A stretch of 64,000 bases of DNA, taken from NCBI GenBank assembly GCA_049513715.1, contig JBEKVV010000002.1, positions 192,001 to 256,000 of the forward strand. Reading direction: 5' to 3'. Below, in pieces: positions 2,919 to 41,873 of this stretch (within the stretch, counting starts at the first letter, position 1; the number at the start of each line of letters is the position of its first letter). A program made the translations under genes and the position numbers. The notes under the pieces are model-generated. The model saw only the letters and a program-made list of their open reading frames with translations. It was not told where the DNA came from and did no database searches. The DNA is from Candidatus Bathyarchaeia archaeon. Its GTDB lineage: Archaea > Thermoproteota > Bathyarchaeia > 40CM-2-53-6.

Positions 2919-3037
2919 TGCAGGAACGCCCTTTGTTACGGCATAAGGGAAAAGCAGAAAGATGGACGTTTCGGCACAGATTCTCGAAGAGGGGTTTGGA
3001 GCTTCCTAGAGCGCCCCGGTCAAAGAGGCGTGAATGT

Positions 3038-3178
3038 TGGCGCCGCCGGCAGGGTTCGAACCTGCGACCAACGGGTCACTGTGTTCTGGCAGCTTAACAG
3101 CTTCAGCCCCCACTGGCTTGGTAGGGTCCGCTGCTCTAACCACTGAGCTGGCGTCTACGCGGTTGCGTATACGGCGGC
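3038..3178 (-). tRNA. tRNA-Asn(GUU) with three BHB introns (8/9: 3170-3150; 30/31: 3127-3102; 37/38: 3094-3077)
   Basis: Removing 21+26+18 nt gives the 76-nt cloverleaf GCCGCCG-TA-GCTC-AGTGGTTA-GAGC-A-GCGGG-CTGTTAA-CCCGT-TGGTC-GCAGG-TTCGAAC-CCTGC-CGGCGGC-G-CCA, with encoded CCA and G73. Each insert forms a BHB-type motif. Confidence 0.92.
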
Positions 3179-3220
3179 TCGTGCCTTTCGGCGGCGTTCG
3201 AGCCATTTCCCTTTCAGCGC

Positions 3221-3228
3221 TTTATTAA
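3221..3228 (-). promoter_or_regulatory. Putative TATA box of tRNA-Asn
   Basis: TTAATAAA on the minus strand, starting 33 nt upstream of the leader acceptor copy at 3195. Confidence 0.55.
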
Positions 3229-38775: not shown

Positions 38776-38816
38776 GCGTGTGCTCTCGATAGTCGGATTG
38801 CTCCGGGCAACTGTGG

Positions 38817-38967
38817 GCTCCGGTAGAAGCGTTCTGCTACCGAATATAGCCCGGTCAAGGCGATTAGTCGCCGAGAGTATGCTGGCCTCTCGAGCATGAC
38901 GGGGAGAGTCAGCGACGCGGGTTCAAAAGCGAGTGCTCAACCGCTGAAAATCCCGCCCGGAGCACCA
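38817..38967 (+). tRNA. tRNA-Glu(CUC) with four BHB introns (10/11: 38827-38844; 20b/21: 38858-38875; 37/38: 38893-38906; 59/60: 38928-38950)
   Basis: Removing 18+18+14+23 nt gives the 78-nt GCTCCGG-TA-GTAT-AGCCCGGTCAA-GTAT-G-CTGGC-CTCTCGA-GTCAG-CGAC-GCGGG-TTCAAAT-CCCGC-CCGGAGC-A-CCA, a typical archaeal tRNA-Glu with encoded CCA. Confidence 0.9.
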
Positions 38968-41765: not shown

Positions 41766-41873
41766 GGGCCCGTAGCTCAGCTAGGTTAGAGCGACAGAAA
41801 ACCAAAGGTCGAAGCTCATAAGAAGAACGGAGAAACCTGCTGGTCGAGGGTTCGAATCCCTCCGGGCCCACCA
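41766..41873 (+). tRNA. tRNA with CAU anticodon, most likely Ile2, with two BHB introns (30/31: 41798-41813; 37/38: 41821-41834)
   Basis: Removing 16+14 nt gives the 78-nt GGGCCCG-TA-GCTC-AGCTAGGTTA-GAGC-G-ACAGG-CTCATAA-CCTGC-TGGTC-GAGGG-TTCGAAT-CCCTC-CGGGCCC-A-CCA. The GGGCCC acceptor is Ile-like rather than initiator or elongator Met. Confidence 0.88.

Follow-up and report, generated by a model that had tools for sequence, protein, structure and literature searches.

Protein-spliced introns in tRNA genes are thought to need nothing more than a local bulge-helix-bulge (BHB) structure. Non-canonical BHB introns, tRNA genes with multiple introns, and the leader and trailer helices of split tRNAs are already known from the available portions of three articles (PMC4090602; PMC4033280; PMC3218864). 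Here we describe a tRNA-Asn(GUU) gene from a 64,000-nucleotide (nt) stretch of the genome of Candidatus Bathyarchaeia archaeon (assembly GCA_049513715.1, contig JBEKVV010000002.1, positions 192,001 to 256,000), which we call the window. Upstream of this gene, beyond a 10-nt spacer, lies a second copy of the first seven nucleotides of the tRNA, GCCGCCG. We propose, with a probability of roughly 0.7, that this leader element is a cis-acting surrogate acceptor strand. It would free the real 5′ acceptor strand to build the BHB of an intron between nucleotides 8 and 9 and would tether the exons, with strand exchange and cleavage by RNase P to follow.

The closest described systems share parts of this arrangement. 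Archaeal introns with the hBHBh′ motif, as presented in the available portions of PMC4090602 and PMC4033280, are alike in their presumed enzymes, EndA and a ligase, and the presence of several introns in one gene is a feature of the Thermoproteales in these texts as well. However, the hBHBh′ motif as described there consists of exon and intron only, whereas here the leader contributes to the outer helix and a second leader element would replace the 5′ strand of the acceptor stem. Leaders enter the same portions of these articles solely in connection with split or permuted tRNAs, and in the available text of a census of tRNA introns in Asgard archaea (bioRxiv 10.64898/2026.10.13.758758), the term "leader" occurs 0 times. 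The split tRNAs of Nanoarchaeum equitans come closer, since complementary leader and trailer sequences outside the mature tRNA present the BHB and hold the pieces together (PMC4090602 and PMC4033280, available portions). In that organism, the helix links two transcripts where they are to be spliced, and the endonuclease itself severs it, whereas the element described here lies in cis and would find its partner at a distance from the splice site, in the 3′ acceptor strand of the mature tRNA, with RNase P as the enzyme that presumably removes it. In bacteria, leaders that pair with the discriminator and CCA likewise extend an acceptor-type helix and may delay 5′ processing, according to the available part of PMC9433436. 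Those leaders lengthen the genuine acceptor stem by a few pairs, whereas the element would provide an alternative partner of 6-11 base pairs (bp) that displaces the genuine 5′ strand and is linked to the presence of an intron. The searchable full-text literature, which comprises open text only, so that an earlier description elsewhere may exist, contained no description of a leader copy that replaces an acceptor strand. Nor did the same literature yield an explanation of how an intron can sit where its BHB must consume the acceptor stem.

The locus is read on the minus strand, and all coordinates are those of the window. In the direction of the gene, its features are as follows.

3221..3228, minus strand: TATA-like box TTAATAAA, a putative promoter that starts 33 nt upstream of the leader element
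3189..3195, minus strand: leader element GCCGCCG, putative surrogate for the 5′ acceptor strand, complementary to the 3′ acceptor strand at 3048-3042 and paired with it in the predicted minimum free energy (MFE) structure
3179..3188, minus strand: 10-nt spacer AAAGGCACGA, the 3′ part of which, CACGA, forms with G1 and C2 the outer helix h opposite G10-G17
3171..3178, minus strand: exon 1, G1-U8, with GCCGCCG at 3178-3172 as nt 1-7 and U8 at 3171; C3-C6 are the central-helix strand H_a, and G7 and U8 lie in bulge B1
3150..3170, minus strand: intron 1, between nt 8 and 9 (8/9), 21 nt, with the inner hairpin UACGC-AACC-GCGUA, the central-helix strand H_b (GACG) at 3155-3152, and the terminal CC in bulge B2
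3128..3149, minus strand: exon 2, A9-G30, D-arm and 5′ side of the anticodon stem, with A9-G17 (AGCUCAGUG) at 3149-3141
3102..3127, minus strand: intron 2 (30/31), 26 nt, with the central helix CAGC:GCUG and the bulges GG/A and AA/G, as read from the sequence
3095..3101, minus strand: exon 3, G31-A37, with the anticodon GUU as called by ARAGORN on the spliced product; orthologs without the third intron (L017-L019) read CTGTTAACCCGT contiguously
3077..3094, minus strand: intron 3, at the canonical position 37/38, 18 nt, with a boundary that is ambiguous by one A
3038..3076, minus strand: exon 4, A38-A76, with the 3′ acceptor strand CGGCGGC at 3048-3042, the discriminator G at 3041, and an encoded CCA at 3040-3038

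An earlier, sequence-only reading of the window had singled out this repeat, and the copy (3195-3189), the spacer (3188-3179), and the second copy (3178-3172) have exactly the sequence it gave. The TATA-like box that it placed 33 nt upstream of the copy is TTAATAAA, at 3228-3221. When the four exons were joined in silico, with the introns at 8/9, 30/31, and 37/38 taken out, the 76-nt product was identified by ARAGORN as tRNA-Asn(gtt). In Asn orthologs that lack the third intron, CUGUUAA adjoins CCCGU. A label of tRNA-Phe(GAA) for this stretch was unsupported, the spliced sequence being called as tRNA-Asn(gtt). We located the tRNA genes with our own scans for T-arms and acceptors, as standard tools had missed both this gene and a tRNA-Glu gene described below. 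Without its intron mode, ARAGORN reported no tRNA in the window, and Rfam at its gathering threshold found neither gene there. Given the unspliced Asn gene, Rfam returned only a partial match of 27.7 bits.

Since intron 1 lies between nt 8 and 9, its predicted BHB is built from acceptor nt 3-6, from G1 and C2, and from the last bases of the leader. We compared this fold with the hBHBh′ criteria of Marck and Grosjean 2003, as quoted in section 4.8 of bioRxiv 10.64898/2026.10.13.758758, the available part of that source. In the central helix, C3G4C5C6 faces intronic GACG (3155-3152) with one mismatch, C5.A. In the outer helix h, CACGA together with G1C2 pairs with G10CUC(A14)GUG to give 7 bp with A14 bulged; the pairs, read from the sequence, are C2-G10, G1-C11, A(-1)-U12, and G(-2)-C13, followed by CAC:GUG across A14. 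Both helices are as the sequence-only reading had drawn them. Its description of the whole 10-nt spacer as complementary to the D-arm fits the 3′ half of the spacer but not the remainder. The bulges, G7U8/A and CC/A9, are the two 3-nt bulges that the definition asks for, and cuts within them give the correct mature sequence. The inner helix h′ is UACGC/GCGUA with the loop AACC, and both flanking helices, h and h′, contain the prescribed minimum, two or more pairs in a row.

The BHB departs from the quoted definition in helix h, which draws on leader as well as exon bases. From this geometry it follows that the splice signal uses six of the seven 5′ acceptor bases and requires the leader. In this gene, as in 39 of the 52 Asn loci that we compared, the central helix has three pairs and the C.A mismatch; in 13 of the 52 it has four pairs (with GGCG or GGTG as the intronic strand). 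A helix with three of four central pairs is termed "relaxed" in the definition given in the available part of bioRxiv 10.64898/2026.10.13.758758. As judged from this predicted fold, the 8/9 insert is a putative archaeal tRNA intron of the BHB type. Across the 52 loci, H_b is GACG in 39, GGCG in 12, and GGTG in one, and the hairpin h′ and intron 1 as a whole vary in sequence and length (16-33 nt). Leader position -1 is A or G, either of which can pair with U12, in 50 of these loci, and position -2 is G, which can pair with C13, in 32.

The leader element accompanies this intron throughout the relatives that we sampled. An order-level search covered 40 relatives from 10 families of the same order and gave a match in 36 of 41 genomes, our own included; all 30 Asn loci fetched from this search have both the 8/9 intron and the leader GCCGCCG, at periods of 12-21 nt and with spacers of unrelated sequence. 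Class-wide, a pattern for the intron-bearing 5′ part of the Asn gene matched in 93 of 301 genomes. We took the leaders of 20 pattern matches in other families of the class, together with two loci found by BLAST, and all 22 carry the element. A BLAST search for the Asn gene in five genomes of other families gave no match in three of them. The intron-based pattern and the fetched leaders replaced a class-wide pattern for the exact copy, which misses diverged elements and long spacers and whose control was uninformative because GCCGCCG reads identically backwards. Two extra rows in the pairing table of the 52 loci were excluded as regular-expression matches to the element itself. The Asn comparison within the class is one of intron-bearing genes only, and no gene without the 8/9 intron was obtained as a contrast.

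In 51 of the 52 Asn loci with the 8/9 intron, the element can form at least six contiguous pairs with the 3′ acceptor strand; the remaining locus, L144, has six of seven pairs with an internal mismatch. The period ranges from 11 to 31 nt, and the 17-nt period shared by the Asn and Glu genes, which the sequence-only reading had emphasized, is present in the window but is a coincidence in light of that range. Where the Asn element varies internally, the change is C to U opposite G (GCCGCTG in four loci, GCCGTCG in one, and GCCGTTG in two), so that pairing is kept; position 7 varies freely (A, C, or T). The complementarity also extends upstream of the element. Preceding bases pair with G73 in 42 of 51 loci, with C74 in 26, with C75 in 22, and with A76 in 15, and in one family the leader reads tggcGCCGCCA, the full complement of GGCGGC-G-CCA. 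Pairing into G73-CCA fits a role in binding the 3′ end and is not predicted by a mere copy of the acceptor strand. The base that precedes the element is nearly always a pyrimidine, and the base that follows it is A or G in most Asn loci. The proximal copy (nt 1-7) is invariant in every Asn locus fetched, the search patterns themselves having demanded an exact match.

Four further tRNAs have elements of the same kind, each leader carrying the sequence of its own acceptor (GCTCCGG for Glu, GCCGGGG for Cys, GCGGGG for Leu, and GCGGTCG for Gly). One of them lies in the window.

38800..38816, plus strand: leader element GCTCCGG (38800-38806) of tRNA-Glu(CUC) and a 10-nt spacer
38817..38967, plus strand: tRNA-Glu(CUC) gene with four introns, the first at 10/11, with the central helix C5-U8:ACCG and the bulges A9G10/A and AA/U11

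ARAGORN identified the Glu product, spliced in silico, as tRNA-Glu(ctc). The sequence-only reading had cited this gene as the other instance with the same geometry. A copy of its own acceptor strand at a 17-nt period is indeed present, but the first intron is at 10/11 and not at 8/9. No BHB fits an intron at 8/9 or 9/10; at 10/11, the central helix is perfect and splicing in silico leaves a valid tRNA. The element is found in each of the 19 Glu(CUC) loci that have the 10/11 intron, exactly in 18 and as GCTCTGG in one, and a U that pairs with A73 precedes it in all 19; six of six intron-less orthologs from other families have no leader element. For tRNA-Cys(GCA), the element was found in all 23 loci with an 8/9 intron and in none of the six loci without that intron. 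At the Cys locus L089, the only match is of the G.U type and lies 47 nt upstream, beyond the TATA-like box of that gene. An interpretation of the Cys gene as a Ser-like class II tRNA was rejected. All 15 tRNA-Leu(CAG) loci with an 8/9 intron counted here have GU-GCGGGG at -22 or -23, which allows eight pairs, including those of GU with A73 and C74; orthologs (H_b = CCCC, nt 9 = C) ruled out an earlier placing of the first Leu intron. The tRNA-Gly(CCC) gene (L033, contig C1, 573300-573520, minus strand) has an intron at 3/4 and GCGGTCG 27 nt upstream of G1. This element can form seven of seven pairs, one of them G.U, with the 3′ strand CGGCCGC, and the preceding U would pair with A73.

Within the genome, the element follows the position of the intron. 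Our table lists 33 tRNA genes, four of which have a first intron at 8/9 or 10/11. The leaders of these four match their own acceptor strands: Asn 7/7 at -17, Glu 7/7 at -17, Cys 7/7 at -12, and Leu(CAG) 6/7 at -22. The 29 other genes, which include genes with introns at 12/13, ∼15/16, and ∼17, have no 7/7 match within 50 nt upstream. Counting Gly, the element is present in five of the five tRNAs of the genome whose BHB uses the acceptor strand (one intron at 3/4, three at 8/9, and one at 10/11). Nearly every tRNA gene found in the genome has one to four introns, and a 3′ CCA is encoded by most of them. The distance from the start of the TATA-like box to the element is ∼32-33 nt in the Asn, Glu, and Cys genes, comparable to the ∼33-40 nt that separate such boxes from the mature 5′ end where a gene has no element.

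The course of events in our proposal, from the start of transcription through tethering to strand exchange, is inferred and would be as follows. The pre-tRNA would begin a few bases before the element. The BHB of the 8/9 intron could form only if the real 5′ acceptor strand released the 3′ strand, which the leader element would then take, in many relatives along with the discriminator and CCA. With the element in place, opening the acceptor stem would be cheap and the 3′ strand would be kept from misfolding. After the two cuts, the 5′ exon (the leader plus nt 1-8) would remain tethered to the 3′ exon for ligation. Once ligation had occurred, the real strand would displace the element, and the D-stem and the L-shape would form. 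RNase P would then remove the element and spacer, a step that would make the strand exchange irreversible. The core of this scheme, that the copy holds the 3′ strand while the real strand and the spacer build the 8/9 BHB, was proposed in the sequence-only reading and is supported by the conservation of the element in 51 of 52 loci, by the pairing-preserving variants, and by the drifting spacers.

One contig of 178 nt, from the RNA library run X1, covers 3035-3199 in unspliced form; it contains the element and extends 4-6 nt beyond it in the upstream direction. It differs from the window at five positions, all in introns 1 and 2 (3115, 3117, 3119, 3120, and 3164), and hence derives from another strain; exons, element, and spacer are identical. 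This contig is the sole find among four RNA runs, with X5-X7 empty, which is not evidence of absence, and it is a weak hint, as contigs can neither prove transcript ends nor exclude DNA. No splice joints of the Asn gene were found in the RNA-library contigs. The transcript probably begins with the element or a few nucleotides ahead of it. The genome also encodes the processing machinery, with an RNase P RNA detected at 188 bits and two matches to PF01974 (tRNA_int_endo) above the cut-off (84.4 and 54.6 bits) in open frames of 214 and 226 amino acids.

C1:841621-841866: catalytic domain of a tRNA-splicing endonuclease gene, identified by PF01974
C4:134780-135019: catalytic domain of a second tRNA-splicing endonuclease gene, identified by PF01974

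The presence of two such genes suggests a two-subunit enzyme of broad specificity, likely a heterotetramer.

We examined the proposal with folding calculations. For the precursor spanning element to CCA, the predicted MFE structure (-69.6 kcal/mol) has the element paired with the 3′ strand and the real strand in a BHB-like fold, including the pairing GAGC:GCUC of the outer helix of the Asn BHB. The unconstrained prediction therefore contains both pairings at once, the co-occurrence that the sequence-only reading had proposed to look for, with the BHB in a shifted register. If the transcript is shortened to begin downstream of the element or at G1, the usual acceptor stem is predicted, and the intron forms a lateral hairpin. 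Ensemble energies favor pairing of the element in 30 of 30 Asn loci (median -7.6 kcal/mol), in 21 of 21 Cys loci (-4.2), and in six of the six Glu loci tested (-7.3).

Several results weigh against the surrogate-strand proposal. Precursors with shuffled introns still favor element pairing (median -5.1 kcal/mol for Asn), as do those from which the 8/9 intron was removed in silico (median -5.6, with none of 30 loci at or above 0). As both controls stay negative, the energy model shows neither specificity for the intron nor a switch back after splicing. Forcing the canonical BHB takes ∼7 kcal/mol when the element is present and 9.3 when it is absent; across loci, the median saving due to the element is only 1.7 kcal/mol (range -0.8 to 5.7). 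The BHB of the MFE structure is in a shifted register (C6G7U8:ACG) and lacks the canonical central helix, in which 39 of 52 loci have the C.A mismatch. In only two of 23 Cys loci does the base before the element pair with U73. Intron-less Glu genes of the same genus keep the element, exactly in L051 and with one C-to-U change (GTTCCGG) in L052. Two same-genus Leu(CAG) genes also lack the 8/9 intron; L110 keeps the element, and in L102 it has decayed to GCGGGA. Conversely, the Leu gene L114 has an 8/9 intron and no element with at least six of seven matches within 120 nt upstream. Finally, the loci behind all our ortholog counts are related, so the counts overstate independence.

Retention of the copy by intron-less orthologs had been named in the sequence-only reading as evidence that would speak against it. 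Such retention is found in L051, L052, and L110, with L102 decaying, whereas distant intron-less orthologs have no element. The four genes are recent losses of a 5′-proximal intron and could serve to date the relaxed selection that follows. L114 (genome G017, contig C4, around locus position 1378) was the sole exception seen among intron-bearing genes; its H_b is CCCU and its spacer contains CCUGG, which is complementary to the D-loop. As for the energies, nearest-neighbor values leave out the enzyme and the tertiary structure of the tRNA, and the calculations lend weak support to the surrogate-strand mechanism while neither establishing nor excluding it.

Other explanations account for parts of these data. 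Chief among them, the pairing of the element with the 3′ end could serve timing or protection, masking CCA and blocking RNase P, aminoacylation, or exonucleases until splicing is done. Complementarity that reaches the discriminator and CCA in many Asn loci and all Leu loci is what such a role predicts, and there is a bacterial precedent in which pairing of the leader with the 3′ RCCA inhibits RNase P binding (PMC9433436, available part). The element-paired fold is favored whatever the sequence of the intron, the computed benefit to the BHB is small, and the element persists in three intron-less genes, all of which are consistent with a role of this kind. We nevertheless regard it as unlikely, since it explains neither why the element is restricted to tRNAs with acceptor-using introns (5/5 versus 0/29), although CCA is encoded by most genes and introns are present in nearly all, nor why the end of the spacer is constrained to pair with the D-arm. 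The copy could also be a functionless footprint of the arrival of the intron or 5′ segment, being either a target duplication or what was once the 5′ end of the gene. In agreement with this, the distance from the element to the TATA-like box equals that from the mature 5′ end in genes without an element, and elements outlast intron loss for a while. A neutral 7-mer, however, is not expected to stay intact in 51 of 52 loci across the class beside changing spacers, nor to accept only substitutions compatible with pairing, and a duplicated acceptor strand does not predict upstream complementarity into G73-CCA; absence of function is thus quite improbable. An origin by duplication is compatible with the surrogate-strand reading, and it is only the lack of function that the data contradict. 

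Two other possibilities carry very little weight. If the upstream copy were the true mature acceptor strand, and the spacer and proximal copy were excised as an extra intron, nt 1-7 would be identical, and the sequence cannot tell which copy survives. Yet most loci have A or G directly after the element, where U8 would be required, and variants such as GCCGCCA or GCCGTTG would alter the acceptor stem, whereas the proximal copy does not vary in the loci fetched. No BHB can be drawn that joins equivalent phases, as CCGC does not pair with CCGC, and a second BHB that would remove the spacer was considered and rejected. We consider this reading highly improbable. That the repeat reflects chance or an assembly duplication is more improbable still. 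The window has only two 7-mers that repeat at a 17-nt period, namely the 5′ acceptor strands of tRNA-Asn and tRNA-Glu. By simple arithmetic, 64 kb of random sequence should contain ∼4 such repeats, so that a repeat of this kind is unremarkable by itself; it is the coincidence of the repeats with tRNA 5′ ends that makes them non-random, the chance of a 7-mer match within 45 nt for a given tRNA being ∼39 x 4^-7 = 0.002. The sequence-only reading had argued that two sequence-distinct cases spoke against chance and against an assembly artifact. That argument is now strengthened by own-acceptor elements of the same architecture in five tRNA species and in independent assemblies of more than 50 genomes. 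The RNA-library contig, which is independent and has five differences, spans element, spacer, and gene.

Our scans also brought up other tRNA-related sequences. The sole Rfam tRNA at gathering score in the window (41766-41870, plus strand, 49.9 bits) has a CAU anticodon loop (CTCATAA) and intervening sequences, no 5′-proximal intron, and no leader element. On contig C2 (278848-278928, plus strand), a tRNA-like gene shows no match to the expected 3′ acceptor strand after its T-arm; an intron within or close to that strand could be the reason, or else the gene may be split or disrupted. Partial copies of tRNA 3′ ends (GTGGGTTCAAATCCCACCGGCCCC) without a matching 5′ half are present at C5:206495-206568, C1:892281-892337, C3:166054, and C3:181343.

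The conserved feature is real, and the mechanism that we propose for it is plausible and testable. More tentatively, and with a little less than even confidence, we suggest that throughout the class introns at the junction of acceptor and D-arm are possible only by means of a built-in folding helper. Transcription would begin at the surrogate strand, and the precursor would first adopt a pseudo-tRNA fold with the leader in its acceptor stem, a fold that would leave the real 5′ strand available to the splice signal and hold the exons together; an exchange triggered by ligation would then make the substrate of RNase P. Such a programmed strand exchange would structurally force splicing to precede 5′ maturation. 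The element might descend from the original 5′ end of the gene, taken into this service after a duplication at the time the intron was gained.

If the proposal is correct, the conserved stand-in acceptor strand would add a new cis-acting component to the maturation of archaeal tRNAs. Splicing would have to come ahead of RNase P, and the element would account for which intron positions are tolerated. The leader element is also a signature by which gene finders could recognize hidden 5′-proximal introns, such as that of the Asn gene that standard tools missed. Under the more tentative reading, the element would represent a cis-acting RNA device that widens the range of positions open to protein-spliced introns.

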